From a virus, in the IMG/VR virus record IMGVR_UViG_3300035510_000237: 43,034 nucleotides of DNA. The stretch is one strand, 5' to 3'. Below are positions 1 to 32,204 of this stretch, one piece after another; position 1 is the stretch's first letter, and every line of letters begins with the position of its first letter. The notes beneath the pieces were generated by a model, which worked only from the letters and a program-made list of their open reading frames with translations, made no database searches and had not been told where the DNA came from. A program made the position numbers and the translations under genes.

Positions 1-2148
1 TGTACCAAGACCAAGTAACTTCACAACCAGATAAATCCTATTCTTCATTATCAGAATTATATAATCTAGCAGTTAAAGTAACAGTGTCTTTTTGCGCCCA
101 AACACCATTCTCTGACAATAATGTAAGACCATTTTCACTATTGTCGAAATCAATTATTAAAGTAACATCAGTGCCAGACGTACCCGCCTAACCAAAAGTA
201 AATTCCTTCTAAGTATTATAAACTAATCTATCTTTTGTAACTGAGCATTCTATAATGTTATTTGTTAAATTAGCATTATAATAACTATTAATTGTATAAT
301 AACAGTATGGGTCTATCGTTCCATCAGAGTTAGCATAATGAGTAATTATAATCTAGTCCCCAATAGTTTCTCCTTCTTCAGGGATTAACATAGTATTACT
401 TGCGGGGAACCTCCAAACTATCTTTTCCGCGTCAGTTAATAAAGTTCCACTACTTGAGACAGAAGTATTTTCATAACCATTTAAATCAAAATGTGCTTCA
501 AGAGTTCTAACTATTTTAGACTAATTAGAATCTAAAAGCTAATTATTTAAACCATATATTCTATAGTTGCCATATGATTTATCAACACAATAAATGCTTA
601 AAGCTGAATCTGCATACAATGTTTCATAGCTACGAACTTCTTCTGTATTGGTAAATGTCACGATGTCTGTTTTAAGAATTTCTCCAGTAGAACGATTAAA
701 AACAATAGCTTTAATTTTTTCTTCCTATTTAGTAAAATCTGGAATAAAGGTATATGAGAAAGATGCGGGCTTCCAAAGCTAAGCCTCCTAACATTCTGCA
801 ATTGCTTCAGTGTAAGTTTTATTTACCTCGTCTAATGCTTTTTGATAGGCTTCTTCTGTTTTAAAATATCCTTCTTCATAACTTTGGTTTACTAATTCTA
901 TATTAGACGTCCAAGAAGCGTTTAATTCATCTTCTTTATCAAAATAATTAGTTGTTAAATCTGTAATGCCAGAAGCCTCTTCATCATAATCCCAATAAAC
1001 TCCACAATACTAATCTCCAGAAGGAGCACCATAATTATATCTATACCAACGAATTTCGTAAAATAAATTATTTTCTTTATCTTCAGTTTCATCCTAGCCT
1101 ACCACAAAACCGTCCTGGTTTTCATCCAAATGAACCCATCTTAAATAAACAGTTTTCTACTAACTAGAGTCTATAGATTCATAATAATCATCTAATGAAT
1201 TTGCATCAGTGATTTCTATGTTACTCGTTTTAACGCTTGAATCTCCTGTAGCGCTATAAGTAGTGGAATCAAAAGTATATAAATAAACTCTATCAGTATC
1301 ATCTGCGCCCAGGTCAAAACCCGCGCAAATATAAATGTCCTTACAGAATAAATTAGACCATAATTCGATTTCGCTATCTTCTTCAAGATAAGGAATCTAA
1401 TTACCATATTTGTCTTTAAAAGTTCCTGGGACTTCATAAAATTCAACTTTTAAATAATAAAGAGTACCAATATCGCTTATATCAAAAACTTTCTCCTGAG
1501 AATAATAGCTCTCAAAATTATATGGATCACCATACATATCAGAAGATTTCAAATAAAAAATATATTCTTTAACTTGATTAGCTTCTTTATAATCTATATC
1601 TTCTGTATTTCTTGCAAGAATAGTAACCTTTAAACCATAATCACCTGTAACAGCATTGCTTACCCAAGTTTTAAACTAACCCTAAATGCCTAATCGTTCA
1701 AAACCAGTATATATCTCGTTTTCTATATCAAAAGTCTTTTCATAAATTGTTTGAGTAGTACGTTCCACTCCATTAGCTGTCAATCCACCAGCATTCTAAA
1801 ATGTAACCAAATTGCCAGTTAAATCAAGCACTGCATCAAAAGGAGTATTAAAAACAAAAGGCTCTGTGGTATCGCTTGTTTTCTTTCCAATAATTATTTT
1901 CTAATTATTAAAATCTCCATTTGGAATAGTAACGTACACAGTAGTATTAGTTGTATAATTAGTAACTGTCGAATAAGCTGTAAAAGTAATTGAGCCATCA
2001 GTAACTTTATATTTGCCTTCTTTAGCGTCAGTATTGTCTGTAATAGTACATACTAATGTTTTATCATAAGAAATACTATCAACAGTTGCCTAACTAACTA
2101 TTTCTATAGCTTCAAGAAGCTTATCCTAAAGGTCAACCACTTGAGTTG
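1..2148 (-). CDS. Large tail/baseplate structural protein downstream of the tape measure gene (Dit/Tal-like position). 5' partial; continues beyond the window start. TAG-recoded.
   Basis: Hand translation of the minus strand from the TTG at ~2146-2148 (AGGAGG RBS at ~2161) gives one frame open to position 1. It is interrupted only by TAG, about 20 of them, with no TAA or TGA. The sequence is protein-like, e.g. ...NIEITDANSLDDYYESIDSS..RWYRYNYGAPSGD... Confidence 0.55.
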
Positions 2149-2242
2149 AATCCGCCAATACTATTCCTCCTTTTTCTCTTATTCTATTATAACTTATTTT
2201 TTTATCTAAGTCAATTTTTATTTTTGGGCCAAAGTAAATAAT

Positions 2243-2268
2243 AGGGAGTAGATTAAGTATCTACTCCC
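2243..2268 (-). terminator. Hairpin terminator downstream of the TMP gene.
   Basis: GGGAGTAGAT-taag-TATCTACTCCC perfect 10-bp stem just 3' of the TMP stop, followed on the minus strand by an AT-rich tract. Confidence 0.4.
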
Positions 2269-2280
2269 TATAATATAATT

Positions 2281-5200
2281 ATTTTCGATTTGCATATTGA
2301 GAAGCTGCATTTACTAAAGTATTTAAAGCTTCTTGAATTTCATTTTTATCAGTTACATTCGGGAACTCGGCATGAATAGTAACTTCTTGTTCAAGAACTT
2401 GGCTTTCTGTTTGCGGGATTGCTGTCTAGAGCATCGCCTCAAAGCCAGCTGCTGCACTCTAAGCATTTAAATCAATCGTCTAAGAAATAGCTCTAATCAT
2501 TTCAACGGCTGATAATAAATTCTCAGTATCATTAGCGTTAAGAACCAATTCTTTCTAATGAAGGAAAGCAAGTTTACCTTCCGGCCCCCATTCACCTGTA
2601 TAACCGCCTGTAGCCAGGCCAACAGCTGTCATATTAGCATCAGTAAACCAAGAAGTTCCATCATAAAGGAGAGTTTTATCAATGTAATTTTTTTGCTCAT
2701 CTGTTAAAGTTCCTTCTTTATACTTTTTAAACGCAGCAGTTAATCTGTCAGTTGAAACATCCGTAACAGTACCATTTGCCTCTATTTTATCATCTCTGCC
2801 CTACTCTAATTCTTTATATTGCTCATCATCTACTGAGCCACCATTTTTAATATAATTACCCATTGCTACAGAATAATCTTTAATAACTTCCGTGGAAGAT
2901 ATAGAGCCTGCAGAATTTTCTTCTAAAGTAGTATTCTATAATGCGGCATATTGCATCATAGCATTTATTAAATCATATAAAGTATCTCTTTGATCTGCAT
3001 ATGCTTTAGTTACTGTATTAACAGCATTTAATTCATCCCCAAGTTTATCTACAACTATATCAGCCTCTTTAACCAAAGCGTCTGAAGCTGTGGTAGTATC
3101 TTTTACCGCAGTGGTAAGATCCCCATAAGATGTTTTTAAATCACTATTAACTTCCGAAACTCTAGTATTATAATCATTAATAGCTTGTAAACAATCAGAG
3201 GTATATTGAGTAGTATATTGCTCCCAAGTCTATGCTGATGACATCATTCCACTATAAGCTGAGGACCAAGCTTCCTCGACCTAACCAAGATCTTCCTAAG
3301 TAGCTAACTTATATAATTCCTAATACTATTCTAATTTTTCTGTATAATAACTATTACAATCAGCTAATGCTTTTTGATAATCTTCATATGTAGCATATTC
3401 GCCATTTAACCATTTTTCATTTATCGAAGCAAGTTCATCTGTCCAAGACTGCATTGTCTCGGCATATTTTTCAGCATAATCATTTGCGCCATCAAGATAA
3501 AGATTATAAAGGGCATTAGTTTTATCTTCATAATTCTATAAAGCATCGCTTATAGTATCCTAGTCGGCAGTATACACATAACCCCAATTACCTTCACTGT
3601 CTCGACTCATGCGTACCGTGCTCTTAGCATTTTTTGCTTCTTCAAGAGCAATTTCAGCGACTAACTAGTCATATTTTGCCTACTAAATTTTTAATTGATA
3701 TTCGCTTAATTTATTCTAATTTTTTAATTCTTCTGTTTCGGCGATAAACGCATTTAATTTACTTTTAGCGGCTTTATTAGTTGTACTTTCTAAAGCCTAT
3801 GTGGCCGTACGCATTAACTTAGTAGTTTCATAAATCTAATTAGTAGTAGTTAAATATTCTTCCTAAAGAGATTTAGCTCTATCCATCGAAGTAGTTAAAT
3901 CTGCTAAATTATTAATATCTTCTAGCCCAGAAGTAATCATTTCTTCCCAAGCATCTTGAATTTCAGCAAACTGCTAAGTAACAATATCTTTTGCGGCTTG
4001 CGCGGTTTCTTCAAGTTTACTTAAATATTCATCTTCGGCAGTGTTTACCTATTCAGTGATAGCGTCATACTCTTTCTTTAACATTTCCCATCCATATGGG
4101 TCAGCATCCTAATCAAAGGTCGCTAACTATGCTGCTATCGTGACCTACTGGTCTTTGTACATATCATAAGAACTTTTTGCCACCTATAATTCATTTGCAG
4201 TAGTGGTATACTTCCCTTCAAGAATGGCGTTAATAGAATCATAATCTTTTGTCGAACCAAGTAGTCCCTAAAGAGTCTAGAAATGAGAAAGACGAGAAGT
4301 ATAAGCCGCTAACCTATCAGTATATTTACCAATTTCATCAGCAACCGCACTAAGTGAATCACTATAATAATTTAACATTTCTTGGTCAGTTGATAAAATA
4401 TCAGATACCAAACTTGTTACATTGTCAAAGCTCGTTTGAACACTATCATAATAATCTGCTTCAGAAATTTCACCAGCTAAATATGCTTGACGCATTGCTT
4501 CATCACTAACAAGCTAAGTATCATATTTAGATTCATAATCATCTATTTTACTCATGGTAAGAGCTGCTTTTTCGGCTAAACGATATACATTATCTCCTAA
4601 TATATCTATTTTTAATCCTATTAGAGTTAAATCATTATCTATAATCTAAAAATGATTATCTAACCAATAAGTTAGTTTTTCATACATCAAATCCTACATT
4701 TCATAAAGATTGTCGTCAATCTCATCTGTAATATCATTACCTTTATCAACAGAGTCGTTAAGGTTTGAATACCATTTATCTTCAATCGCAAAATAGGCTT
4801 TTAATTCTTCAATTACGCCATTCCAATAGGCTTGGTCATCTGCATTATCGGCTTTGGCTGCCTATAAAGTTGCATAGTCTAAAGCCTCGCCTAAAGCTTC
4901 AGCCCTTTCTCCCTCATTAGTGGCTTCATGAGTTACAGGATCATATACTATATCAGGGATTTTACTTAAAAGGTCCTACATTGTCGAGGTCTGCGTTTCA
5001 CTAGCTATGCCATCCTTTTTAATAGCTGCAGCAATCTCAGCATATCCTTCTGTTGCAGTAGCTTCATTTTTCTATGCTTTAGCAAGATATTCGAGGGTTT
5101 TGCCCTAATTAATATTATACTCTTCCTATAATTCCACACTTTTTTCTGCTAATTTTTCGTATTCTTCATTTATTTTATCTATTTTGTTCTAACCATAAGC

Positions 5201-8200
5201 ACGTTCTATCTATTTTTCTAATTTACTAATTGCTCTATCTAAAGAATTTAAGGTACGAGTAAAATCTTGGTATTCGTCACTAATAATATCACTTATATCA
5301 AAATCTTCAATTCTTTCTAAATACCCAATCGCATCAGCAATCTAATCATCAATATCAGAAATTAAATCTAAAGTATCGTTGTACTAATCATAATATTCCT
5401 ACCAATAAGATAGCCAATCTTCAGCTTCATCATATCCAACTTCTTCTTTGTAAGCATCTTGCTCTTCCTAAGTGGATAGCCCATTTAAATACTCATCCCA
5501 AGCATCAAATTTGGGCTAAATTGCAGCTGCTATATCATCATAAGTAGTAGTTAAATGACCATCATCATCATATTCTAATGTAAATGTAGTGCCAAAATAA
5601 TTGCCTAGTTCTTGAGTCGCTTTTTCTAAGTTAGCCTAGTCTTGTGGTAAATATGTTTCTTCTGCTAATTTCTTTTCTTGCTCTAGCAAAGATACATATT
5701 CTTTATTTTTTTTACAAATTTCAGCTAGGGCGCCTAATCTATCCGCGCCATAAAGGTTATCAGCCGCTTTATTAGCTTTCTCTAACGCTTTACTTACATC
5801 ACTAATTGAATTTTCTATTGTTTCATAACGATTAAAGCGCTACGTTTTAGCTGTCCTTTTAGCAGGAGAAGAAGAACCACTGCCACCAGAAGAACCTCCT
5901 GAGCTAGAACCTCCTCCGCCGCCTGAAGCTTTAGCGGTTGCACCAGAGCCAGAACCATTATATGAGGTTCCACTTGGACTAACAACTGGTAATGTAATAT
6001 CGCCAGCGCCAGTACCATTAGCAGTTGTTGTCTACTAAAATTCTGCATTAATCTCCTGTGCTGCATTACCAGTACCTATTGTTCCAGTCATCGTCCAAGA
6101 AGAATTAGATGTCGCTCCCGCATTTTCGGTAGATGAAAGGGTTTCTTGTTCGACATTTAACTAACCTTCAATTTGGTCTAATGCCATCTAATAAGCAGTA
6201 TTATAATCATAACCAGCATCTACTAATTCCTAAGTGACTTCATCAATCATGCTATTAACGGCATTATGTAGATTTGAAAAATCAGCACCACAACCTAGCT
6301 AACTAAGAATTTCATCCATCCCATCAACACCGTTAGCTAATAAGTCGCTCCAAGTTAATCCAGCATTTGTTAATACTGTACTAACATTATCCATTTCCTA
6401 AAGAGTACTATCATCTAACCCTGAAATTACATCAGCCCATTTAATAGTAATATAATCAAAATCTACATTAAATCCAATTGAATTTAATAAGGCTTCAACT
6501 TCATCAGTGGTCATCTAACCAGTAGCTAGCATTTCATTCAATGCTGCTAAAAATTCTGTATCGTCTAGTGTAGCGCCAACTTCTAAGTTATCTAAATCTA
6601 AATTATCAATAGCTTTCTCTAATTTAGTAAGTGCTTTATCATCAAGTTTTAAACTAACTAAATAATCTTTTGCAACTTCTTTCTAAAGGGCTTTTAGAGA
6701 GGCAATGTCTCCGTCACTAGCTTTCTAAATTAAATCTAAATTTTTAGCAACAGTATTATTAGAAACTTTTACTCCAAAGATTTTAGATAAAGCAGTACCA
6801 ACTGAAGATAAAGATTTTGCCGTATCAACAGATATATCACTTAAATTGCCAGAAGCTTTTTTAACTTTTGCTAGTTCGTCACTATAATCATCTAATGCGT
6901 CAGCTAAATCATCAAATCCCTCTTGTGCAGACATAGCTGAAGCTGCCATCTATAAAGCTAAAGTCTACATCTACTCAGTGCTTCTTGCGGCATCTCCTAA
7001 AGCACTATTATAAGCTTCTAATACCCCATATAAAACATCAGCATAGTTTGACAACTCAGTAGCGTCTAAGCCAGTGTCAGAAGCAGTAGCAGCCAAAGCT
7101 GCTTGATAGGCTTCATCCCAAGCCTCTGCAAGTTTTTTTACAGCTTCAGTTTCTTCGTTAATACCTTCAATCTAAGATATAGCGTCAAAAGCATCATCTA
7201 AATCCATTAAGTCATTTATATCTTCAACAGAAGCTGATAATACCTAAACTCCTGCAACCATAGCATCTACATTATCAATTAATCCTGAGTCTATCCAAGA
7301 AGCTAATTCAGTACCATCCATTGCGGAAGTAGCTAATGCAATTTCAGCAGCCAACTATTCTGCAGCGTTTGCAGTTTCATCAAAATAAGCAGCATTTTCT
7401 GCCATTATTTCATCTAATCTTTGAACTGCTGCATACTATTCTGAATAACTGGCATTAACATCATTAATTATATCCTAAAGGTCTTGTAGCTCCCCAATTG
7501 ATAAATCAATTCCCTAATTATTTGAAGCAAGATCTGTTAAAGCATCAATTTGAGAATTAGCTTTTCCTCGTCCAATATATGAATTTCCATATCCCTATTC
7601 TATAAAAGAAGAAGAAGTATCTACATCAGATCGAACCTCCGCCGCCCGCAAAGACTAAATTTCATTAATGAAAGGCTAAATAGTAATTTCATGAGCTGCT
7701 TTCTAAAATTCTTCCGCATCGCCAGTAAGCATAGCTGTGCCATCAGCTAGTACAGTAAAAAATTTATCAGTTAATTCTGTACCTAAATCTGACTATAAAG
7801 TAGTATAATCTTCAGAACTTACAGTATCACCTTTAGATAATCCACTTATAATTTTTTGAACAGCTGCATAAATTTCAGATGCCGTAGCTGTAGATACTGC
7901 TCCAAGCTACTGCATTGTATTAATAATTTTCTATAAATCAGAATCTGATTCAGTAACAACTATTCCAGTTTCTTCTAACTTTGCTTTAAATTCATCTACT
8001 GTTATGTCTGAAAAATCTAATTCTCCTAATACCGTTGCAAATTCTCCAGCATCATCTCCAAGATTTTTAAACATATCACTGACACCCTGCATGGCGGTTT
8101 TGCCATATTTATCGTAAGCAGTTTGTAATAAATCTCCGACAATACTAGCTTGGTCAAGATTTAAGTCTTTGCCTGCATCAGAGTCCATTAATGAAGTATA

Positions 8201-11200
8201 AACTTTATTAACACTATCGGATAAATTATTTCCTATGGCATCAAAGCTGGCTTGTAATAACTGATTTGCCACATCTACATTTATTTTAAAATTATCTAAT
8301 GTATTAAAACCAAAAGTCTGAGCTTCTTCATTTGTGGTTAAAGTATTTACATAATTCTAAATATTATTTACATCTTTTGAACTTAAATTAGAAAAATTTG
8401 AACCTCCAGATAGCCCCAATAGCGCTGAAGTAGCCTCTGCGCCAAGTCCCTCTTTATTAATTAAATTTTCCTATAACTACTGCGCTTCTAATGTAGCCTA
8501 AGCTAGCTGCTCGGCTGTTTCAATAGCACCTTCGCCTAAATCCCCTAAATAAACATTTAAATCTTCTGCGGTTATACCTAATTCATCAACAAGTTTATCA
8601 AAACCAAAAGTAGATACTGCCCCTTCAGCAGAATTTATATCCGCAGCAGCTTCATACTTTTTAATTCGCTTATCATAATCTCCATAGTCTTCTAAATAAT
8701 CTACTAAAGCCCGCTGATAATTTTCTGCAGTAAATTCTGGAGTAGTTGTCTAAGCCAAAGACTATCTAGCAACTAAATTTTGAATTTCCGCAGAAGCATT
8801 ATTATAATCTGAACTATTTAATCCAAGCAAATTATTCTAAGCTAGCTAAGTTTTTATTAAATCATTGCTTTCTTCTCGTCCATCAATATTTGCCACTAAA
8901 GTACTAATATCTGTTAATGAAGCACTAATATTGTCTAACTCATCTGTAGATAATACTCCAATTACATCTGTAAAACCAGAATTAATAATGTCCCATTTAG
9001 CATTCTCATCATCACTAGTTCTTAAAGTCTCAATCGCCTATGTAAAATTCTCTATACCATTTTCTGAAATATAAGAAACAATATTGCTTAACTAGTCTTT
9101 ATCAATACCAATACTTTTTGCTGTCTCTTTAATGTCAACAGCATTCTAGTCTTGATTATTTGAAATAGTATCAGCATATTCTTGCGATAAAGCATCTCGG
9201 CTTTCTTGTAAAACTTTATTAATATAATTCTAATAAGTCTCACTGGTAGTATCTAAGCCAAGTACGCCATTTACATTGGTAACCGCAGCAGCTAATTCAG
9301 GATAAGTTTGAATTAATTCAAGAACTTTTTGATTTAATTCTTCAACCGCTTCTCGCCATTCATCAGTGCCTTCAGTCATTTCATCTAAAGCTGAACGAGC
9401 ATCCGCTATATCATCAAGAGAAGACTGTAAATCATCATAAGCCTATTGAGCCTCTTCTGCTTTTTCGGTAGATTCTTCCAATTTTTTGGTAGAAGCCTCA
9501 AGAGCATCTTCTTCTTTATTCTAAGCTTGAATCCAATTATAAATAGCACTACCTACAATTGCAATAGCTGCAGCCACCGCTAAAATAACAAGAGCTGCAC
9601 TGCCCATTGAAGCAGATAAAGCTTCATTTGCCATTACTTCTGCCCAAATAGCTCCTGTGACCGTTGTATGCTCTTCTGCCTCAACAGCCTTCTCAGCGGC
9701 CACTTTAACAGAATTAGCAATTTCTTCTCCCTATGTAATTGTTAATATTTTAAGAATTAGATTTTCTGCATTAATAGATTTTGTTAAAAGGTTATATGCT
9801 GCCGTTAAAGTTGGTATTGTCATACCAATAGCCATCATGACTGAAGAAACCGTTTCCCATTTTGAAGCATCAGGATCTTGAATTTTCTCCCAAGCTGTTT
9901 TCCAAGTGCTCATTAGCATGCTAACTGACATAATAGTCGAACCTAGAGACTAAATAACTTGGCCCCAATTAACAACTTTCCCCTGCATATTACTAATAGT
10001 CTTACCAGCTTTATTAGTACTCTGCTCCAAATTCTTCTACTAAATATTAAATTGTGCAGTCTTTTTTCCCGCTGTTTCAGCAGCAGCACCTACTTTATCT
10101 ATAATTTCAGCTTCTTTAGAGCCTGCCTAAACGTTTACATTTAGCATACTAGAAGTGGTAGCTGTATTTGCTCCAGAGCCAAAATGAGTCATTAATCCAC
10201 TCATGGTATTATCTACGCCTTTTAAACCGGTTTCAATATTTTCCAAATCTAATTTAGCAGGTTCAAACATTCCGTCGCTATCAACCTCAATAGTAGACAT
10301 CTATTCTTTTAACTAAGTAAATGCATTTACAAGACCTTGCGCCTTCTCTCTCTCTTCTGGTTCAATTAATTCAGAATTAGCAATTTCTTGATACTTCTAA
10401 ATAGCCTAATCTAAGCTTTCAGTAAAAACATTAGCATTTACTTTACCAGTACTGTCTAAAGCTTTTTTAAGTGCATCAACTTGTTCACGACCTTCGCCAA
10501 CTGTTTTAGCAAGATTAGTGAATTGAGCCATGTCTATTTTAGTAGTTTTAAGCTCTGATATTTTATCTATAAGTCCTTGAACTTCATTCTAAAGCTTTAA
10601 AATATCAGAACCAGTAGTTTTAGAAGCAATACCTTCCTTTTCGGCCGCCTACACTTCTTCATAAGCAGCTTTTACTTTTACCAGTGTGCCAACTGCATCT
10701 ATTCCTTTTTCATTAAGTTCCGTTAGAGTGGCATCATCCAATTCTCCTACTACAGTATCTAAAGGCGTATATAAATTATTTAATAATGTTTGTTTTCTAC
10801 TTTCATTCTATAAATTAGCAGAAGTCTTATCTGTCGCAGCTACAGTCAAATCCTACATAGCTGACGCCGAAATTCCTCCAGATACAGCTGTTACAGAGGA
10901 TAAAGCCCTCCTAGCCTCAACAGTTCTAGCTATAGCTTCAGCTTCTTCATTGGCTTTATCAACTACCTATCCCTATGCAATAAGCTAATCACCCATAAGA
11001 GCATTAATATTAATTAATTCCTATGCGTGCTTTACCTAAGCTTCACTTAAATTACTTTCGTTAATAAGAAGCTTTTGCTATATCGAGGCAATATTCTAAT
11101 AATTTGATACGGTTGCCTAGCTCTCAGCCGATGTTGATGTTGCGGTCATCTATTGTAGCTATGTAGAAGCTTCTTGCTTCATAGAAGTCGCTTGTTTAGC

Positions 11201-13175: not shown

Positions 13176-13257
13176 TAAACGCTAGATTTACAGTAATCTA
13201 TTGTGCCATATATTTACTCCTTTCTCTCTCGGTTTTTCTATTTGCAAATAAAAAAAT

Positions 13258-13856: not shown

Positions 13857-13910
13857 TTTAATTTCTCCTTTTTCTCTTTTTATATAGTATAACATAATTT
13901 TTAAGAAAAG

Positions 13911-18561: not shown

Positions 18562-18580
18562 ACCATCTCTCCTTTATCTC

Positions 18581-22343: not shown

Positions 22344-23108
22344 TTAGACAATGCGCATAATCTTAACGCCGCGCTGATGGTCAGGCATGGTATAAACCTT
22401 AACAACCTGCCACTCCATCTTATCATCAGTACCAACTTTGAGAATACCATCATCGCCAACAACAAGGATGTCGCCAACAGAAAGCTCACTAGCATTCACA
22501 GTATTAGTAGTAAAAATATCACCAACATTAGTCTTGAAGACACGTGGCACCATGGTAGTACCAGCAGGCATAAGACCCTCTTTGTAAGGACCATAAATAT
22601 GGAAAGGATCCTCGTTATAATGAATCTCATACATATCAGGACCAGCAGTCACATCATCATAAGCATATTCATTTTCACCAATAGTGGTTGAACTCTATTG
22701 CTGGTCATCGACACCATTGTAATAACGAGACTGTCTATCAAGCACTTCGTCAGCAACAGGGTTGCCATCCTTATCAAGAGCATAACCGAATGGGCTATAC
22801 ACACGAGCCTGATAATTGTCCTTCAGCATTGCAAACTCGCAATCAATCTGATGGTCGCGATAAAGCTTAATCTCATTGTAAACGAGCATCCACTCGCCCT
22901 CGCCAGTAAAGTCAACAACGCCCTTAGCATAATCATACTTTACAAACTGACCCTGCTCCAGAACGTCAATATCAGCAGCAGCGGGCAGCTATGCATAAAT
23001 CTAGGCAGTTCTCTGCGCTGAGAGGTGGTTAGGCTCTACTTGGCCATAGCCATACTCAACGAAGCTTGCCTGGCTTGTAATATTCTTCTTTAAAAAATCA
23101 CTAAGCAT
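22344..23108 (-). CDS. Hypothetical head protein, 254 aa, with 2 internal TAG.
   Basis: AAGGAGGATAAAAA-ATG at 23106-23108. It reads MLSDFLKKNITSQASFVEYGYGQVEPNHLSAQRTA(Q)IYA(Q)LPAAADIDVLEQGQFVKYDYAKGVVDFTGEGEW-MLVYNE.. It joins track ORFs 22695..22889 and 22344..22652 in one frame. Confidence 0.5.
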
Positions 23109-23125: not shown

Positions 23126-24733
23126 TTATTTTAAATCTTTCGCAACTTCCATAGCAGCTCTAACCCAAGCTGGAGTAGATTCATCCTCAGCAAGATTACC
23201 TAAATTATAAGTAGTAGGTGCTGCAGACTTAGAATCTTCATCCTGGCTAAAGCTTACCTTATTGCGGACGCAAATAATAGATAATTTAGCTTCAATATCC
23301 TCTAAAGAATAATTATCAATATTATTGACAACATCAGCTTTATCTTCATCAGAAAGCATATAGAAACTATTAATCATCTCTTGCTTTTGGTCTCTCTCGA
23401 CCTTATTACGGAACTGAATAAGAGGCTCAAGCTTATTATTAAGCTCCTCCTTCTCTGCGAGAAGAGTGTTATATTTACTCTCTAATTCAGAATATTTATT
23501 TACTAAATCAGTATAGTCAGGAATATCATTTAAATTAAGATTCTCAACTTCAACATATTTATCGACAGTTGATGTATCTGCGCAACTATACTTCTTTTTC
23601 TTCTTCTTAGAGTCGTCCTCTTCATCTTCCTCTGCGGGCTTCTCTTCCTCATCCTTATCATTAGACTTGGAATCATCAGAAGGCTTTTCCTCTTTATTAG
23701 AATCCTCTTCTGTTTTATCCTCAGTTTTCTCTGATTCATCTTCGTCTTTTTTGTCCTTAGACTTTTTATATTCAGACTCAAAGGCTTGGATGCCTTCAGG
23801 AGAGAATTGAGGAGTTTCAACACTATAATCCTCCACAGCAGTAAGCTCCGCCGCAAACTCAATAGCATCCCCATTAACAGAGAAATCCAAACGTGAGAAC
23901 TCTCCATTGGTATTCTTTAAGATGGCATATTTCTGGCCTTCATCCTCAAATATCCCATCAATAGAATAAACTCCTGGATAAGTCTCATCAATATGGCTAT
24001 ATAAAGCAGACCACAAAGTATCGCCAACTTTAACAGAATAAGTATTAAACACTTGTGTCCCTCCTTCTTTTAATAATTCTTTTAATTCATTCATCATTGA
24101 GAACAGCTAATTCTTAAAACCTTCATCAAATGAGAATTGAACATTTGAAATAGTAGAACCTTCAAAGCAAGGTTCACAATCTTCGCCTAATATACATAAT
24201 TTTGATATTATCGCTTCATTAATTATAAAAAATTGCGGATTTCCATTATTATCTTCTGACCAATACGCATCAATATTTTTATCATCAAGTTCCATTGATT
24301 GGTTATTGCCATGTTCAACAATTCTTGCGCACTCAGGATATTGACCAGTCCAAAGATAACCTTCAGTCATTAGATACTCATGCTCATAAACGCCATCGTC
24401 TAAAAACTTCTAAAACCAAACTTTTGCATCCATACTAACAAATCCATAAGGACGAGTAGTATCTTTAATTTCAAATTTACCATTAGAAATGTCAATTACA
24501 CGATTATGCTCTTCAAAATCCTCTTTAGATTCGTTATAATACCCAACTATGGGAGAACCAGGAAGAGAATTAGCCATATCACGCGCAACCTCTTTAGTAA
24601 TAATACTTCCATTCCTATTAGGCTCGTCGCCAACATAACAAACCTTGATTTCACATTTGGAAATCAAAGGGTTAAGAGGGACGATATTAATAGGTTCGCA
24701 AGGAACCTCTAACTTTACACTAGTGTGTTTCAA
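23126..24733 (-). CDS. Capsid maturation protease-like N-domain fused to an acidic coiled-coil scaffolding C-domain, 535 aa, with 2 internal TAG.
   Basis: Track ORFs 24410..24733, 24107..24370 and 23126..24097 share one frame and are separated only by TAG. The C-terminus has a DE/K-rich linker and a coiled coil (..KYNTLLAEKEELNNKLEPLIQFRNKVERDQKQEMINSFYMLSDEDKADVVNNIDNYSLEDIEAKLSII..), typical of phage scaffold proteins. The N-domain function is inferred and uncertain. Confidence 0.5.
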
Positions 24734-24746: not shown

Positions 24747-26342
24747 TTAACTCATTGATTCACGATTCTATAATGTCTTTTCGCTCTTTTCATTATCTTC
24801 TTTTTCAGGGCGACCAACTTCATTGTCGCTAGAGCCACTAGAAGATTTACTCTAACGGCTAGCTTTAAGCGCAGTTACATTTTCAGCACTCATAACAGAC
24901 GACTGTAAAGGTGGCACCATGAGTTCGCTAAGATTAAGAACTTCATTCTCAAAATAAGCGGTATGAAGAATAGAACTCTAAGAATGTCCTAATGCAACCT
25001 GCGGAAGCATCATAGAGAAGCCAATCTAAGAATCTTCTTTATACATCTTAGCCAAAGTTTGATAATTATACTGAGTGGTTTCCATCATACAAAATCTAAA
25101 ACCATATTTTTTTCTATTAGCACATTTTGATTGTACTACCTTATCCAGAAATGCACTAAGCTAGAACAGCAATGTGCGCATTGTGGATTCATCAGCTAAA
25201 ATAGAATTAGTAAGCGCAATATTTCCATCGGCATTAAATATATCTTTAGATATACCAAGAGAATTATAAACTGTACGCTCCACTCTCTCCAAATCATCTG
25301 TAGTAGTACTAGTATTATCATCAGCCATATCTTCAACTTGAATGTCCGCAAATGTCGTTAAAACATCAACGCCAATAGCATGACTTAACATTTCAACTGC
25401 ATTATTATGAATATCAGTTGCTTCGTCAACGTCAAAAATTAAATCGCCATTCTTATCAAGAGGCAGTTTCTGAATAACAATCTTTAATAACTGCTACATC
25501 TACTTGCGGCGATCTAGGTCTTGTGCGGCATCCAAATCTAGAATAGCAGGAATCGCATTAATAAATAAAGGAGCATCATGATTATTAAAACTAAACTTGA
25601 CCGCAGTTCCTGGGTCTAATGTATACCAACTGCCATAAGTCTCACTTATAGTATCTGCAGGGAGTTTATGAGTTTTATATAATCTATATCCTTTTTGAAA
25701 ATCTGCTGGGAACATACCTAAAATTTTTGTTCGATATGTTAAATCGGGGAATTGTTCATCAAAGAATTTCATATTAAAATCTACAACAGGCTAATCCCCA
25801 ACATTAAATAAAGAACGACAATAATTAGCTGGAAGCTATTGTAAAACTAGACTATCAGAAGAATCAATTATATAGCCATAATAAGCGCCACTGCGAATAA
25901 CTTCCAATGAAATATCACCCGCAAGTTTCTTAATATGAGTGTTATCTAAATAATTTAAAATATTATTCCAGTCTTTTAAAATCTTATCATTATTAGCCGT
26001 ATCATCTAATACTTCTGGATAAATATACCAATCATATCTATATAAAAAAGCATAATAATCACAAGCTGTTTTATAAATACCACTGGTATTATAAAAATAG
26101 TTTGAAATTTCCCGCATAAGTTTAATATCATGGGTTTCAATAGCTTTTAAGATAAATCGTTTATTACCAAACTAATTCTTAGCTTTGCTAAAAGCGCCTA
26201 AATTTAAAACCGCATCTTCAAGAGTTTTTGTGCCAGTTTTAATGCGGCCATACTACACAGCTCCCTCTGGGCCTTCGTATGTTTGGCGTTTACTCATCAT
26301 ATCAAAGCCTTTAGCTCGAATTTCTTCCTATCTATTTCTCAA
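24747..26342 (-). CDS. Portal protein, ~530 aa, TAG-recoded (about 13 TAG).
   Basis: GGGGGTG RBS then TTG at ~26340-26342. One frame is open to the TAA at 24747-24749 and contains track ORFs 25836..26117, 25500..25772 and 25161..25391. Its position between TerL and the scaffold gene, and the motif ..ISNYFYNTSGIYKTACDYYAFLYRYDWYIYPE.., are portal-like. Confidence 0.55.
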
Positions 26343-26357
26343 TAACTTTCACCCCCT

Positions 26358-26713
26358 TAATATCCAGCCTTCTCCATAATATAATCATATGATATTAAGT
26401 TTTCTTCGGTATAAGGGATTTCTATTAATTTAAAATCATGAAGTGCACAAAAACGCTTCTTCTTATTATCATTAAACTATTGTTGATAGAAACCTTTCTT
26501 ACCACCATACTTAGCACTAGGCTCATAATGTTGTTTACCTTGATATTCAATAATAAAATCTATGTTATTATCATCATCAAAAACAACAAAGTCAAAACGA
26601 AGGGGGCGGCCACTTGAACTCTTTAGCTCAGGAAAAATATATTCCATTCTATATTTTAGCCCAGAACGCTCTAAGATTTCATGGATTTTTCGTTCTCCTC
26701 TACTAGCATCCAT
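26358..26713 (-). CDS. PD-(D/E)xK-like small nuclease (possible homing-endonuclease-like gene) between TerL and portal, ~118 aa, with 1 TAG.
   Basis: GGAGG RBS then ATG at 26713. It reads MDASRGERKIHEILERSGLKYRMEYIFPELKSSSGRPLRFDFVVFDDDNNIDFIIEYQGKQHYEPSAKYGGKKGFYQQ(Q)FNDNKKKRFCALHDFKLIEIPYTEENLISYDYIMEKAGY*. The D..(12)..IEYQGKQH spacing resembles a restriction-endonuclease-fold core. Confidence 0.4.
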
Positions 26714-26796: not shown

Positions 26797-29700
26797 TTAA
26801 TGAGGAGTATATAATTTCCATTCTTTAGCATTAAATTTCTTTTTCTTTCGTTTACTATCTTCTTCTTGCTTAATATAATACAAGCCATAACATAGCGCAG
26901 AAAATTTATCCTTATGAATACCTTTATTGGCCTATTTAAGAATAATATTAACTCCTTCATTTTCTTCTCGGAGATTAAGCATTTCTTCCTTTAGAATAGA
27001 AGTTAATGAATAAGGAATTAAATATTCCTTCCTCTGTTCTGGAGTCATATTCTATCCAACTTTAGTGCCAAGTAATTTGTTTTTAGCTAATTTATCGTCG
27101 ATTAAAAATTTAATTTTACCGCTATCTATCGCAGTCTATACAGTTGTATAAGCTTCTGTATTAATTGGCGCATTTGCTTTCATAATATAAACAGCATTAT
27201 CTTCTGTATCATCAGTGCGATATTTCTTATAATACTGCGCCGCATCTGCTTGCGTACCACCATATACTCCAAATGGAGGGTAATAATCACCAGTGGCTTT
27301 GTCCGTCTAAGATATTACCATGTCATCTATTAAGCCACCGCCAATACCATTACCATCAATGACAACCCTGCGGGCTTTATATTTATAAAATAATTTCTTT
27401 ATCATTATGGCCTAATCCTAGAAATGAGCATCTTCAAGAGTATAAATATTAACTAGATTCTTTATAGAATCTCCTTTGCTCTAAGGCCGCACTTTAAATA
27501 CACATATTACTGTTTGACATCCTTTACGTCCAACATCAACAGATAATATATAATATGCTTGCTCAGAAGAACGTCTTGAATATTCATTTTCAGGTTTCTC
27601 CAAGCTTCTATTTCTATCAAAATGCTCACCATCAAAGAAAGCATCTTCAACAGTACCTGACCAAACACTTTCATACTCACGGCCAAATGATGCTTCATTA
27701 AAGGTGGGGTCTTTCTTTAAGTCATTAATAAAGTTTTTAGACTAAAGGCCAGCAACTACTGGAATTCGCCAAGTTCCGCCCATGATATAAGCTTTGTCAG
27801 GCTAAATAATCATCTGGACGAGAGTCTAAATTAATTTCTCATAACTATATGTATTTTTATATCCAGCAGTAGTAATATAAAGCTGTGATTGATTTAAAAC
27901 TTCATCTTCTTGTGTTGTTCCATCAAGGCATTGGCGAGAAACGTTCATCAGAGGAATAATAACCTACTGAAGCATATCTTGGTCAACGCCAACACATTCC
28001 TCTATCAGACCGGCATGTTTACGAAGTCCACGAGAACTCTCTCTAGCTGCAACATTCTCTATATCTGAACCATTCTTGAATATAATCTTACATTTATCTT
28101 TGCCCATTTGGGTCTAGCCGCGACGCCAATCTATTTCTCGTTTAAATGCCGGAATTTTAGCGCAAATATCATTAACCTTTTCTTGAAGGATTTGAGCTGC
28201 CTGTTCTTTACCACCAGCAGTTGAGAATAAATGCGCGCCAGGATATAGAATACAACGAATCATCAAAGTTAGCACAGCGAGGAATGATTTCGAATCTTTA
28301 TATTCTAATAAATTCGCAAAATTTATTACGTTCAATTATGAACAGCTTATAGTTTCCTATAAGAATAGACTATATCACACTTTATTGTTATATAATAAAG
28401 TCCTCCTTTTTCGATTTAAGGGGTTCTCACCCACCGCATTAGCTTCGGCCCTACTCCTATTGCCTCTATTTTTATTCCGAGGAGGCTTATTTCAGGATAG
28501 TCGTTGAAGTTTATAAAATTATAGATATTTAAAAATGAATCCGCCATGAGACTTATATCTAATTTGTCTGCACACTTTAGAAATTACACTAGCATCTAAA
28601 CCTAATTGTTTAGCAGCTTCTCTAGCAGAAGGAAATTCTTTTATAAATTGTCCATCTAAAGTATACTATCCAACTCTTTTTGCATTCTAATTAGTTTTAG
28701 TTTCATATAAAGCAGCTCTAACATTTTCAGAAAGAGTAATTTTTCTTAGATTATTAAAATCATTATTTAATTTATTTCCATCAATATGGTCTATTACCTC
28801 ATTTTCTTTAATATTAAAATCATCTGCAAAAACACTATATACTAATTTGTGAATCATAATATCTTTTTTTACACCATTCTAACACAACGTAGCTTTATAA
28901 TAACCACAAGTTATCACTTGCTATAAAATATTATTTGTTTTGATATTATGTATTCTGCCTTTATTAGAAATTCTATAATTAGAATACTCTGGAATTTCTT
29001 TCCATTCTTCACCTATCTAATCGCCATCATATTTAACAAATTTTCTTCGTTCTTTATTGTTCTATGAGTGCCATTTTTTAGTATTTTCAGAATAGCTAAC
29101 CCATTCTAAATTTGTTACACTATTATTTAATTTATTTCCATCAATATGATTAACGACTGGTAGATTATTTGGGTTAGGAAGGAAATGCTCTGCTACCAAA
29201 CGGTGAGCATAAAACATTTTCTTTTTTCCATTTTTAGATAAACGATAATATTTATAGCCATGTTCGCCAATACTGCCTTTTAACATTTTCTAAGTAGTAT
29301 TATTATAAATATCACCATTATCATATATAATATAATTCTCATAATCTTTAATATTCGTTTTCATTTTCAAACCTCCATAATAATATCTTACCTGCGGATT
29401 TTCTTGTTCAATATATTATGAATTTAGAATCCCCGCAATTTAAGAGGTTTGTCCACAGAGATTATCTTAAAAATCTCTGGTTGGCGCAATTCAATTTACG
29501 CTCTCGGATACACAACATATACATACTTGTATCGCATAGCTACCCTTAAAAATACTCTCTAGTAAAAAAATAAGCTAAATGTTATTTTAATTTCTTTACC
29601 TTCAGAATTTTTAAAACATTTATTTCCTGCTTCATTAATATAAACAGGATAGCCACCTGACTACATAAAATCAACAAATAAATCAGGATACTCTCTCCAA

Positions 29701-29807
29701 AAAGCCACATAGGAACGAAGAGCTGGGATAATAGGCTTAATGCGCTCTTCTGAAATACCTATCTTCTTTTTATCAGTGGAAATATCTAATAGGTCTGCTA
29801 AAGCCAT
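26797..29807 (-). CDS. terL: Terminase large subunit. join(29498..29807, 26797..28295), interrupted by a 1.2-kb group I intron. TAG-recoded.
   Basis: Exon 1 reads MALADLLDISTDKKKIGISEERIKPIIPALRSYVAFWREYPDLFVDFM(Q)SGGYPVYINEAGNKCFKNSEGKEIKITFSLFFY(Q)RVFLRVAMRYKYVYVVYPRA|. Exon 2 reads YSKSFLAVLTLMIRCILYPGAHLFSTAGGKEQAAQILQEKVNDICAKIPAFKREIDWRRG(Q)TQMGKDKCKIIFKNGSDIENVAARESSRGLRKHAGLIEECVGVDQDMLQ(Q)VIIPLMNVSRQCLDGTTQEDEVLNQSQLYITTAGYKNTYSYEKLI(Q)TLVQMII(Q)PDKAYIMGGTWRIPVVAGL(Q)SKNFINDLKKDPTFNEASFGREYESVWSGTVEDAFFDGEHFDRNRSLEKPENEYSRRSSEQAYYILSVDVGRKGCQTVICVFKV... Splicing reconstitutes the ATPase P-loop ..VYPRA|YSKSFL.. and a C-terminal nuclease domain, ending at TAA at 26797-26799. The TAA of the upstream gene overlaps the TerL ATG (TTAATGG). 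Confidence 0.7.
28296..29497 (-). other. Group I intron in terL carrying a tandem HNH homing endonuclease ORF.
   Basis: Minus-strand reading finds P-like AAATTGCGGGGAT (revcomp of ~29425-29437) and Q-like AATCCGCAGG (revcomp of ~29388-29397) 5' of the ORF. 3' of the ORF are R CTTCAACGACTA (revcomp of 28501-28512) and S-like GATATAGTCT (revcomp of ~28366-28379). The exon junction restores the TerL P-loop in frame. Shared motifs (TTCAACGACTATCC, AGGAGTAG, AATCGAAAAAG) with the TMP intron indicate related IA-type introns. Confidence 0.65.
28519..29364 (-). CDS. Intron-encoded tandem HNH homing endonuclease: two complete NUMOD4/HNH_3-type modules in one frame, joined through TAG codons, ~282 aa if fused.
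   Basis: GGAGG RBS then ATG at 29362-29364. Module 1 reads MKTNIKDYENYIIYDNGDIYNNTT(Q)KMLKGSIGEHGYKYYRLSKNGKKKMFYAHRLVAEHFLPNPNNLPVVNHIDGNKLNNSVTNLEWVSYSENTKKWHS and ends at a TAG (29062-29064). The frame continues as (Q)NNKERRKFVKYDGD(Q)IGEEWKEIPEYSNYRISNKGRIHNIKTNNIL(Q)QVITCGYYKATLC(Q)NGVKKDIMIHKLVYSVFADDFNIKENEVIDHIDGNKLNNDFNNLRKITLSENVRAALYETKTN(Q)NAKRVG(Q)YTLDGQFIKEFPSAREAAKQLGLDASVISKVCRQIRYKSHGGFIFKYL* with TAA at 28519-28521. The repeated HIDGNKLNN motif and the C-terminal QYTLDGQFIKEF DNA-binding motif are typical of phage HNH homing endonucleases. TAG falls at positions where Q is typical (VYQYDLDG). Confidence 0.65.
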
Positions 29808-31039
29808 TAATTATTGTCCTAATCCTTATAAACTTTTTCGGCCTATCTTTCCCAATCTTCTTCAAATTCTGAAAATTCTTCAAAGTCACTATCTTCAATT
29901 ATATTTTTACTATCATAATCAAACAGAGCATCTTCCGCCTTATCTTCCATTCCTTCAGCATAAACGCTAGCATCTTTAATAGCAGCTTTTTCATCCTCGA
30001 TAGCCTTGACCGCATTTTCAATTAAATTGCCTAAACCTAATTCGCCAGTAACCAACTCTTTAACATAAATCTAATTGTCTTGGATTACTCTATCAGCTTT
30101 ATCATTAGGCTATTCAATATAATATCTAGGAATAAATCCTTCTTTTTCACAAAGTGCGACAATCTCTCCAATAGAATCAAAAGCATCATTTTCTTCAGCT
30201 TTATTCTAGGCAGCTGTCCATTTGCCAGATTTCATTAAATTTTCATAAACTTTTGCCATCTTTTGAGCGCCATCAATATCGCCCAAATCCAATAGCTAAT
30301 TAGCTTTTAAACTAGCTTTACACGCAAGCTTTAAAGTGTTAATATCACCGGCCGCAGTTATATCGTAAGAAGCCATCATTTCCTAGAAAAGCTTTTCTAA
30401 TTCAACCCATTCCGCAGGTTTATATGCTTTGCCCCATTTAATTCTTAAAGCAAGTTTATCTTCGTCAGTTAAATCTCCTGCGATGTCTTCATCGCTAAAT
30501 CCATTCTACGAATCAAAATAATCCATTTGCTAATAATCATCTTGCTCTGGTAATGCTTCATGCTTGGGTTCTACAAATCCTTCTTCAGGAATTACAATTT
30601 TATTTTCTTTTAAAGCCTAATCAATTTCAGCAGCACCAAAACCTTGACGCTTCATAGCTTGTTCAATTTTATTATCAGAAATCTTCTATAAATATTCAGT
30701 ATCTGACCAACGATAATCTCTAAATTGTTTAAGTTTCATCTTGGACAAATAACGGCCAATAATAGTTTTACCAGTTACTTTACTTGGATCTTTTCCATAA
30801 GAAGCAAGTAATTTATTCCATTCGTCTGGAATATAAGGGACATCCATTTCTTGTAATATCCATAAGAATGTCTCGGGATTCCAGTTATCTACAAACATTG
30901 TTTGGCAGTCTTTACACTAAGACATTTTCCCATCATTTGGATATTTTTCTAAATTGTTAGAAGTATAAAAGTCGTCCCCACGTTTTGTGCGGTTACATTT
31001 TTCGCAGTAATATAACTTTTTATCAGTTTCGCTGCTCAT
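29807..31039 (-). CDS. Putative terminase small subunit / DNA-packaging protein with an N-terminal C4 zinc ribbon, ~410 aa, TAG-recoded (about 9 TAG).
   Basis: GGAGG RBS then ATG at 31037-31039. It reads MSSETDKKLYYCEKCNRTKRGDDFYTSNNLEKYPNDGKMS(Q)CKDCQTMFVDNWNPETFLWILQEMDVPYIPDEWNKLLASYGKDPSKVTGKTIIGRYLSKMKLKQFRDYRWSDTEYL(Q)KISDNKIEQAMKRQGFGAAEID(Q)ALKENKIVIPEEGFVEPKHEALPEQDDY(Q)QMDYFDS(Q)NGFSDEDIAGDLTDEDKLALRIKWGKAYKPAEWVELEKLF(Q)EMMASYDITAAGDINTLKLACKASLKAN(Q)LLDLGDIDGAQKMAKVYENLMKSGKWTAA(Q)NKAEENDAFDSIGEIVALCEKEGFIPRYYIE(Q)PNDKADRVIQDN(Q)IYVKELVTGELGLGNLIENAVKAIEDEKAAIKDASVYAEGMEDKAEDALFDYDSKNIIEDSDFEEFSEFEEDWER(Q)AEKVYKD(Q)DNN*, contains track ORFs 30686..30898 and 29843..30055, and ends at a TAA overlapping the TerL ATG. 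The function is positional inference only. Confidence 0.35.
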
Positions 31040-31088
31040 AATAAATACCTCCTTCAAAATAAAATAAATAAAGATTTATAGTTCTTAA

Positions 31089-32135
31089 TCCGTTTTGGCC
31101 TTGTTTGTCTTTTGATTGCGGCAAGCTTTACAAATACTATAAAAGCCATCTTTACTTGTTTTATTTTTACTAAAATATTTATTATTAGCTAATTTGATTT
31201 GCCCACATCGACTACATTTTTTATAAGCACCTTTTTCTTTATTCAAATAATGCCAACTTAATAAATTATCTTCGGCCGCAGAAGCAATTAAATTTGGGAT
31301 TTTTTTGCGCCATAAACTAGAAATATATTCAATGCTATGCGTTGTTCCAAATTCTTCTTCTAACAGTTTTTGGATTTCCGCGTTCTATTTTCCATCTATC
31401 TTATATTCAACAATCCGCTTATAAAAAGGATAATCTTCTAAAGCCTAATCACATACTTGCTCGAAGTCATAAACTAAAAACCATAAGTCTCCTTCAAACT
31501 AATCCCAACTATCTTCTTTTAATCTTGAATAATTACATAATATGGCAGAGCAGACTTTTGGATTACATAATGAAATTCCTTTAGGAATGACTCTACCTTC
31601 ATCACTAATTTCAAAATCTTCATCTAACTTTGTATAAATTTTTGAACGAGTAAGCTTATTTGGCACAATAGGACGTCGATAAGCATTTTTAATTACATAC
31701 TAATCTTTGCGCATTTCAATCAATGCTTTTTTAATAGTATAGGCTTGTTTTCCCTCAGTGACCTTTAATTTTGCTTCCCAAACTGTAATAGAGTCGCGCA
31801 ATTGTTTTAGTGGAGGAATTTCTTCAATATCTTTTTTTGTAATGGTTACTTTTGGCTAAAAAATTGTTGTTTTACTATCACTCATTAAACTATAAATACC
31901 ATCTTCGCCATTCTCCAGCTAGGAAACAAGTCCTTCAAAGGAAGTTTCTCGTTTATTAACAGTGGTCATTCGATTCTCTGTTAGTATTTGTTTTTCTTTT
32001 TTCTCCTACTTCTCCATACAAAGAACTAAATAATCTGCTAATATTTCTAAATATTTCTCATTCGGCTCTGGGGTTTCATTTAAAATCTATTGAACTAACT
32101 AATTTCGCTCTTCGGGAGTGCTAAGAGTATAATCT
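31089..32135 (-). CDS. Hypothetical protein with a C-terminal CxxC..CxxC zinc ribbon, ~345 aa, TAG-recoded (about 9 TAG). Possible late regulator or DNA-binding protein. The start is uncertain.
   Basis: One frame is open from ~32135 (GGAGGTG nearby; start codon unresolved, candidates are GTG and an internal ATG) to the TAA at ~31089. It reads ..EPNEKYLEILADYLVLCMEK(Q)EKKEKQILTENRMTTVNKRETSFEGLVS(Q)LENGEDGIYSLMSDSKTTIF(Q)PKVTITKKDIEEIPPLKQLRDSITVWEAKLKVTEGKQAYTIKKALIEMRKD(Q)YVIKNAYRRPIVPNKLTRSKIYTKLDEDFEISDEGRVIPKGISLCNPKVCSAILCNYSRLKEDSWD(Q)FEGDLWFLVYDFEQVCD(Q)ALEDYPFYKRIVEYKIDGK(Q)NAEIQKLLEEEFGTTHSIEYISSLWRKKIPNLIASAAEDNLLSWHYLNKEKGAYKKCSRCGQIKLANNKYFSKNKTSKDGFYSICKACRNQKTNKAKTD*. Confidence 0.35.
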
Positions 32136-32204
32136 AACTTGATTATATATCTCACCTCCATTACTTTTATTATAGCAAAAATTTTGGTCAAAGTCAACTG
32201 TTTT

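Follow-up and report, generated by a model that had tools for sequence, protein, structure and literature searches.

Reading of TAG as glutamine in the late operon of a large SPbeta-like gut siphovirus, with amber codons kept out of the capsid and tail tube genes

The window analysed here is the whole of IMG/VR virus record IMGVR_UViG_3300035510_000237, 43,034 nucleotides (nt) long, and corresponds to some 43 kb of the genome of a large siphovirus. The phage comes from metagenomes of gut or rumen type, its relatives lie on contigs of 137-175 kb, with those in metagenome bins reaching 154-175 kb, and its host is most likely a member of the Clostridia. The window has a GC content of 35% and a GC skew that flips at about 32 kb, where the minus-strand block (1-32.2 kb) gives way to one on the plus strand. 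The first block is the late (morphogenesis) operon (1..32161, minus), with the genes for packaging, capsid, neck and tail; TAG stands in frame 271 times in this operon, and neither TAA nor TGA occurs internally. The second is an early region of small open reading frames (ORFs) behind consensus promoters (32262..43034, plus). The evidence supports the view that genetic code 15 applies in the late operon, with TAG read as glutamine (Gln) and termination by TAA and TGA alone.

The three stop codons are distributed very unequally in the late operon. Its 23 coding segments comprise 10,126 codons, for which base composition predicts about 373 TAA and 226 TGA, and none of either occurs in frame; in the other two frames of these segments, TAA occurs 331 and 621 times, and TGA 110 and 686 times. 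All 22 complete late genes end in TAA (19) or TGA (3), as an earlier sequence-only reading of this DNA had claimed. Minus-strand ORFs with a length of 100 amino acids (aa) or more cover 37,228 nt if TAG does not terminate them, against 9,675 nt under the standard code, and the longest minus-strand ORF grows from 369 to 3,286 aa. The same measure led us to reject the recoding of TGA (14,703 nt) or TAA (22,980 nt). Amber codons account for 271 of the 512 late Gln codons (53%), at a mean density of one per 37 codons, where one every 20-40 codons had been proposed; the density ranges from none to one per 17. The claim that every long frame is interrupted by TAG was too broad: the capsid, tail tube and g11 genes have none, g9 has three and a YonD-like gene two. 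Likewise, where 11 of 11 ATG-initiated ORFs of at least 60 aa had been said to stop at TAG, we count 18 of 23 in-frame ATG ORFs.

Read-through also restores protein families. The recoded portal protein (24747..26300, minus; 517 aa, 11 TAG) matches phrog_2739 at positions 56-495 with 270.6 bits (E = 5e-80), whereas the three longest fragments obtained under the standard code score 62.9, 59.3 and 29.3 bits and match successive, colinear parts of the same family. TerL, once spliced and recoded, scores 192.7 bits against 50.9 bits for a standard-code fragment, so that in both genes the recoded product is matched far better than its pieces. The spliced tape measure protein (TMP) matches PhageMin_Tail over its entire length (1-201/201, 109.5 bits), and the match spans the exon junction. 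Among the motifs singled out in the sequence-only reading, we confirmed HIDGNKLNN twice in one HNH ORF, LAGLIDADG, and SQYANRK at the end of the TMP. Assemblies made independently from other samples are 100% identical over 14.5-14.7 kb, so the TAG codons are not assembly errors, and a strain of 98% identity keeps 56 of 58 of them. In one public pipeline, the Logan gene calls on an identical contig already run through TAG.

The amino acid inserted at TAG was assessed by aligning the recoded proteins to the ORFs of relatives and finding the empirical substitution profile that best explains the residues opposite TAG. Gln had the maximum likelihood in three comparison sets. It led serine by 36.5 log-likelihood units with two cultured standard-code phages, Enterococcus EF1 and Alicyclobacillus KKP_3916, and was ahead by 20 units with Phass-1 and by 729 with 22 IMG/VR relatives, in which the codons facing TAG are most often CAA (261), TAG (180) and GAA (86). 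Two close relatives, L165 (CAAFXG010000343.1, 65.6 kb, from a Lachnospiraceae bin) and L171 (JAGBVS010000114.1), have major capsid proteins 77-82% identical to that of the window and essentially no in-frame TAG. They carry Gln at 50/86 and 63/120 of the TAG sites (52-58%), the same rate as at CAA and CAG sites (58/113 and 81/161). Gln and TAG together make up 3-6% of codons in most late genes, TAG-rich or TAG-free alike, with two short exons outside this range (1.9% and 9.3%), and CAG is nearly absent from genes in which TAG is common. Between 98%-identical strains, three of the four changes at TAG are exchanges between TAG and CAG. The motifs adduced earlier for an alignment of TAG with Gln hold in TerL, where relatives lacking the intron, the cultured standard-code Alicyclobacillus phage KKP_3916 among them, have FFYQRVFLR for FFY(TAG)RVFLR, and in the TMP, where YYQ(TAG)G faces FYQQG or FEQQG. 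These comparisons support Gln as the amino acid encoded by TAG in the late genes.

Early genes do not use the codon. We counted them over the window and an 8.9-kb right-hand extension taken from an identical contig (L036): the 40 called genes, with 3,850 codons of which 89 encode Gln, contain no in-frame TAG and end in TAA (26), TGA (13) or TAG (1). The boundary of the code thus coincides with the early/late boundary, and an unmodified host can translate the early genes. TAG has almost gone as a terminator (1 of 40 early and 0 of 22 late genes). In public assemblies, a contig of 50-200 kb carries the 79-aa early protein of the window. The two blocks are served by promoters lying back to back. 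A perfect TTGACA-17-TATAAT promoter (32204-32232, plus) faces about 20 small plus-strand ORFs, and a near-consensus sigma-A-type promoter (TTGACT-17-TATAAT, TG-extended; 32169..32197, minus) precedes the first late gene (31085..32161, minus; 358 aa). Only 8 nt separate the -10 element of the latter from the ATG at 32161, and the first late mRNA would therefore have little or no leader, although GGAGGTG follows this ATG. The gene has nine TAG codons, the first at codon 20, and is labelled 'sigma factor' through PHROG 5767; this identity is putative, and the gene has no match in Pfam, NCBIfam or PDB sequences.

Within the late operon, TAG is excluded from a particular set of genes: those for the major capsid protein (Pfam YonB; 21234..22325, minus; 0 TAG, 14 CAG, GC 0.44), for g11 (20593..21153, minus; 0 TAG, GC 0.41) and for the tail tube (Pfam YomU_Tube), with a first exon encoding MKFGV (16408..16421, minus) and a second of GC 0.43 without TAG (15146..16157, minus). 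A fourth gene, g9 (22344..23108, minus; GC 0.43), has three. The virion proteins made in the largest amounts are those of the TAG-free genes. The pattern is conserved in relatives, of which two independent sets were counted: TAG occurs 2 times in 4,219 and 2 in 3,444 codons of the capsid gene, 0 in 3,376 and 1 in 2,502 codons of g9, and 1 in 1,563 and 0 in 2,262 codons of the tube gene; other late genes of the relatives have 0.5-3.5 per 100 codons. The TAG-free genes also differ in composition, with a GC content of 0.41-0.44 against 0.26-0.39 elsewhere, and G-ending codons predominate in them (AAG 89%, GAG 75%, CAG 82%) when compared with TAG-rich genes (24-26%). They hold 40 CAG codons, each a single transition away from TAG, and yet no TAG. 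We infer that the avoidance reflects purifying selection against a codon whose decoding competes with release factor 1 (RF1). Where TAG is used, a following T is mildly depleted (17% vs 23%, p = 0.005), in line with this reading. That capsid, tube, g9 and g11 consistently exclude TAG goes, as a refinement, beyond the literature that we compared.

The remaining late genes, all on the minus strand, complete a module that is SPbeta-like by its protein families. Precomputed Pfam annotations on identical contigs comprise YonB, YonD_N, YomW, YomV_2nd and YomU_Tube; the SPP1-like module suggested by the sequence-only reading is not borne out, as no SPP1-type Pfam or PHROG family was matched and the matches are of SPbeta type. 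Our own Pfam search, with a copy of the library lacking these five models, gave no match for portal, capsid or tube. Downstream of the first late gene lies a phrog_3314 protein with zinc-ribbon-like CxxC pairs at its N-terminus (29807..31039; 410 aa, 12 TAG), followed by TerL in two exons, the first ending in ...GCG T (29498..29807, 2 TAG) and the second with 12 TAG (26797..28295), which together encode 602 aa. Two PHROG families of 'unknown function', phrog_15503 (245 aa) and phrog_24618 (230 aa), correspond to the N- and C-terminal parts of the TerL family, and the library appears to hold families built from gene calls broken by TAG or introns.

Between TerL and portal is a small nuclease-like ORF (26357..26713, 1 TAG), annotated 'homing endonuclease' through phrog_9084 and with a weak match to DUF2726. 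It occupies the same place in more than 30 relatives, among them the standard-code Enterococcus phage EF1, at 51-89% identity. Given this synteny, it seems to be a permanent part of the module and not a mobile gene, and its product is perhaps a packaging-associated nuclease. The portal gene is followed by an acidic, scaffold-like protein of the YonD_N / phrog_3313 family (23126..24577, 2 TAG), by g9, capsid and g11, and by the head-tail connector or neck genes g12-g16, including YomW and YomV_2nd (17243..20572, 36 TAG in all). Beyond the tube gene, an orphan, g19 (13911..15056; 381 codons, GC 0.265, 16 TAG), is inserted before the gene at the position of the tail chaperone (g20, phrog_30570; 13329..13895, 3 TAG). 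It is absent from all the relatives compared and has no Pfam, PHROG or NCBIfam match. The tape measure gene has a first exon with 14 TAG (12545..13209) and a second of 3,285 codons with 113 TAG (2279..12134), and its spliced product has about 3,500 aa. A distal tail protein (1..2278, 21 TAG) is cut by the window edge, and a metagenome scan with it returned nothing that extends the left end.

Three late genes are split by introns. The tape measure intron has a core at 12187..12510 (minus) that scores 61.6 bits against Rfam RF00028 (gathering score 50); since it lies above this score and its removal restores the protein, we take it for a group I intron. The whole intron spans from about 12135 to 12544 or 12564, depending on the 5' splice site: the rule of an exon-final U and an intron-final G favours 12545|12544, and homology favours 12565|12564, a site without the canonical U. 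The canonical site adds seven residues. The TerL intron (28296..29497, minus; 1,202 nt) and an ORF-less intron of 250 nt in the tube gene (16158..16407, minus) appear to be of group I type, with matches to Rfam Intron_gpI below the gathering score (20.9 and 12.3 bits for TerL; 15.0 bits, E = 0.16, for the tube gene). Their boundaries can nevertheless be fixed because exact exon joins, U/G pairing, the intron-final G and core motifs shared with the tape measure intron agree. In TerL, where the core motifs AATTGCGGG, TTCAACGACTATCC and GATATAGTCT were found, a wobble pair can form between the final U of the 5' exon and the leading G of a GCGC located 10 nt downstream, G is the last nucleotide of the intron, and the join ...PRA-Y-SKSFL... 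is identical to that of intronless relatives. The tube intron follows codon 5, with an exon-final U, a 6-bp P1 to GCACUA and an intron-final G, and its join MKFGV|REIC matches intronless homologues.

The TerL intron contains an endonuclease with two HNH_3 domains, NUMOD4 and NUMOD1 (28519..29364, minus; 7 TAG), and a free-standing LAGLIDADG endonuclease ORF with a proposed TTG start (16425..17219, minus; 9 TAG) lies directly upstream of the tube gene. Translation of both depends on the code change too, as they carry in-frame TAG. With the phrog_9084 ORF (26357-26713), this makes three nuclease ORFs instead of the two homing endonuclease genes reported earlier (28519-29364 and 16425-17219 being the others). 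The arrangement of a free-standing LAGLIDADG gene and a separate ORF-less tube intron (16158-17219, minus) recalls 'collaborative homing'; in L016, a relative, another nuclease ORF interrupts the tube gene at a different place, after residue 66. At a permissive Rfam threshold, no tRNA or other RNA was found besides the introns, the microRNA and small nucleolar RNA matches being chance or a plain hairpin.

The early region is rich in repeats. They extend over 33970-38970, are densest at 35218-36090 and include a perfect 48-bp tandem of 2.8 copies at 35438-35569. A stretch at about 33.6-35.7 kb, nearly without a credible ORF, holds paired palindromic repeats of the GTTAGTTAGAACTAAC type in nine or more copies, accompanied by further families (CACTTTAACACAGTAAAGC..., TTTAAAG-rich). 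It may serve as an origin of replication, as a partition site or as an array of operators. A promoter cassette precedes each small early gene (40045-40110, 40456-40521, 40923-40988, 41269-41334, 32196-32253, 41925-41982 and 42258-42315), in which a near-consensus TTGACA-17-TATAAT overlaps the inverted repeat CTCTTGGAG...CTCCAAGAG. By its recurrence this looks like a shared operator, and the repeated cassette explains the 'YYITPRGFCQE' peptides that recur in antisense translations. Between two early genes, a near-perfect long hairpin (39602-39673) is probably a bidirectional terminator; a microRNA model matched it on both strands (E = 2e-4) and was rejected as a spurious family. The early ORF at 33209-33538 (plus) has an AbrB/SpoVT-like N-terminal motif (VDGLGRITLPRGLRQRF), recognised by eye only, which makes its product a candidate transition-state-type regulator.

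The closest named relative is Phage Phass-1 (OQ749652), which NCBI places in a 'Caudoviricetes code 15 clade'. A tblastn search with the portal against 50,697 phage records found an unannotated human-faecal fragment (MT836163, 53%) and Phass-1 (37%), and then, at 24-30%, standard-code Enterococcus, Alicyclobacillus, SPbeta-like, Lactococcus 949-like, Brevibacillus and Bacillus phages. phAss-1 is a 136-kb siphovirus with TAG-to-Gln recoding in 41 ORFs, a tape measure of 3,149 aa and three suppressor tRNAs (Babkin et al. 2023, PMC10607447). Members of the proposed genus Phassvirus share 80-86% nucleotide identity and have tape measures of 3,149-3,209 aa, and the wider group mixes recoded and standard-code genomes, including Enterococcus phage EF1 (PMC10607447). 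By the synteny of TerL, portal, capsid, tube and giant TMP, we place the window in this wider group related to phAss-1 and EF1. It is not a Phassvirus and belongs at least to a different genus, judging from sequence comparison: a megablast search with 12.3 kb gave only a 54-bp HNH motif match in Clostridioides phages and no nucleotide-level match to phAss-1, and protein identity to Phass-1 is 23-56%.

The window resembles phAss-1 in the recoding of TerL, portal, tape measure and tail genes, in a TMP of more than 3,000 aa, in a homologous late module (portal 37%, TerL 43%, capsid 51% identity), in its gut origin and in its predicted Clostridia host. It differs in a TAG density about ten times higher (11 vs 1 in portal, 14 vs 2 in TerL), in early genes that diverge from the late operon, in three introns where PMC10607447 mentions none, and in the suppressor tRNAs, which are seen in phAss-1 and not in the window. 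Essentially TAG-free L165 and L171, sparsely recoded L016 and Phass-1, and most other relatives, with 1-2 TAG per 100 codons, show that the clade spans the range from the standard code to dense recoding.

Code 15 is known from several groups of gut phages, namely crAss-like, Lak, Garnet, Amethyst and Topaz phages (bioRxiv 10.1101/2021.08.26.457843; PMC7886860), and was proven by metaproteomics in crAss-like phages (PMC9523058). The recoding that the sequence-only reading compared with that of gut phages is thus indeed of a type already described, including in the Phass-1 clade, and recoded intron endonucleases and Firmicutes-infecting lineages have also been reported (bioRxiv 10.1101/2021.08.26.457843). 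In common with these phages, the window has recoded late genes beside early genes compatible with the standard code, a low GC content, rare TAG stops and close standard-code relatives. Unlike them, it belongs to an SPbeta-like siphovirus virion lineage, and while a tail tube family is preferentially recoded in crAss-like phages, tube and capsid are TAG-free here. With SPbeta- and EF1-like large Firmicutes siphoviruses it shares gene order, YonD_N, YonB, YomW, YomV, YomU and a giant tape measure, and in EF1 TerL is interrupted by HNH as well; those phages use the standard code, and protein identity to them is only 21-41% for most proteins. The host-type promoter before a TAG-gated first late gene and the presence of three introns in one recoded operon are, like the exclusion of TAG described above, refinements beyond the literature compared.

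Amber suppression of the supE type relies on a tRNA with a CUA anticodon that is charged with Gln and competes with RF1 at UAG. By analogy, suppression in this phage probably works in the same way, with the difference that it would be obligatory and genome-wide for one gene class instead of a leaky rescue of single mutations, and that the tRNA was not observed. Suppressors are present among its relatives. An ARAGORN search of 18 related loci and 10 relatives from metagenome-assembled genomes (MAGs) found tRNA(CUA) in Phass-1 and one distant relative alone. In Phass-1 there are three, among non-structural genes on the opposite strand (also PMC10607447). In the distant relative (L140, IMGVR_UViG_3300028886_000363; TerL 27%, portal 24% identity), a tRNA(CUA) at 10718-10811 lies immediately downstream of the portal gene, which indicates that suppressor genes can sit inside the structural module in the broad group. 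When IMG/VR was scanned with the pattern of the Phass-1 suppressor anticodon arm, the matches listed were mostly unrelated phages, among which only Phassvirus contigs were recognisably related.

A temporal switch has been proposed for alternatively coded phages, in which early genes follow the standard code and a suppressor then gives access to late genes (bioRxiv 10.1101/2021.08.26.457843). We consider it very probable that one explanation of this kind accounts for the recoding of the late operon to Gln, the early/late split and the selective avoidance of TAG. Early in infection, host RF1 would read TAG as stop, and the TAG-bearing late genes would be truncated within their first 3-110 codons. 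A phage tRNA with anticodon CUA, encoded outside the window and charged with Gln by the host glutaminyl-tRNA synthetase, would then build up and outcompete RF1, opening the translation of late genes. The two endonucleases with seven and nine TAG and the first late gene, behind its host-type promoter, would be opened by the same suppression. Most TAG codons would have come from CAG through C-to-T change in AT-rich genes under weak codon selection, while selection would keep them out of capsid, tube, g9 and g11, likely since incomplete suppression wastes product or truncates subunits.

Several points weigh against this explanation. ARAGORN found no tRNA gene in the window or in the 8.9 kb beyond its right end (52 kb in all), so the suppressor of this phage is unseen, and none in the structural regions (about 20 kb each) of the 10 close MAG-borne relatives; two recoded relatives have been described without detectable tRNA-Sup (PMC10607447). 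The 'sigma factor' label of the first late gene comes from one PHROG annotation alone. The reason for the avoidance of TAG in capsid and tube is read from codon usage, and for any single gene a recent transfer from a standard-code phage is possible, although this is made less likely by the persistence of the pattern in more than 30 relatives.

The same observations may be seen as a two-tier translational programme, with a TAG-gated switch and TAG-free bulk proteins, instead of a uniform change of code, a possibility that we advance tentatively and hold to be clearly less likely than the explanation above. The first late gene would be transcribed from the start of infection and translated only after the suppressor had built up, so that late expression would have this gene as its master switch. 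The assembly-critical bulk proteins, namely capsid, tube, g9 and g11, would be made independently of how well suppression works, and none of their subunits would be truncated.

It is improbable that read-through of TAG needs no phage suppressor tRNA of its own, as it might if the phage inactivated or depleted host RF1 and a host tRNA-Gln then decoded UAG by near-cognate pairing. The empty search of 52 kb would fit such a mechanism, as would the recoded relatives reported without tRNA-Sup (PMC10607447) and the detection of suppressors in only a fraction of recoded phages (Borges, bioRxiv 10.1101/2021.08.26.457843). However, the sequence at hand is less than half of the genome, three tRNA(CUA) are present in Phass-1 and one in the distant relative, and near-cognate decoding would be far too inefficient for late genes in which TAG writes 53% of Gln, with 113 such codons in one gene.

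Still less probable is a host that itself uses TAG for Gln and whose code the phage mirrors. We know of no bacterium with code 15. TAG is almost never a stop even in the early genes (1/40), as such a host would imply, but these genes have 89 Gln codons without a single TAG where the late genes use TAG for 53%, the corresponding genes of the close relatives L165 and L171 have essentially no TAG, and relatives are binned with MAGs of ordinary Clostridia and Lachnospiraceae.

We give next to no credence to another residue at TAG (pyrrolysine, tryptophan, tyrosine, leucine, serine, glutamate or lysine): ARAGORN does call CUA tRNAs 'tRNA-Pyl', from the anticodon alone, and glutamate and lysine come next opposite TAG, but in three independent comparison sets Gln is ahead of every other residue by 20-729 log-likelihood units, TAG sites show the substitution spectrum of CAA and CAG sites, and strains exchange TAG with CAG. 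Equally negligible is the view that the TAGs are true stops in a decayed, pseudogenised or misassembled element, which the standard code seems to suggest by leaving the region shattered (largest ORF 369 aa): only one stop codon of the three is in frame, protein families are all full length after read-through, TAG positions are partly common to relatives of 50-80% identity, and independent identical assemblies from several samples, with a 98% variant that keeps its TAG codons, rule out assembly error and decay.

The current picture of stop-codon recoding is unchanged by this phage, which adds to the known code-15 phages a densely recoded, SPbeta-like lineage that probably infects Clostridia. 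In practical terms, translation under the standard code breaks the 32-kb module into more than 200 fragments, and the contig needs translation with table 15 and splicing of its three introns before any comparative or host-range work; public family libraries already include fragments of recoded genes, such as phrog_15503 and phrog_24618. If the two-tier programme were true, the lineage would stand among the most densely recoded of its clade beside TAG-free sisters and provide a natural series for the gene-by-gene spread of a code change. With sister lineages that are TAG-free or sparsely recoded, the phage forms a graded series in which gene-specific selection for or against a reassigned codon becomes measurable.

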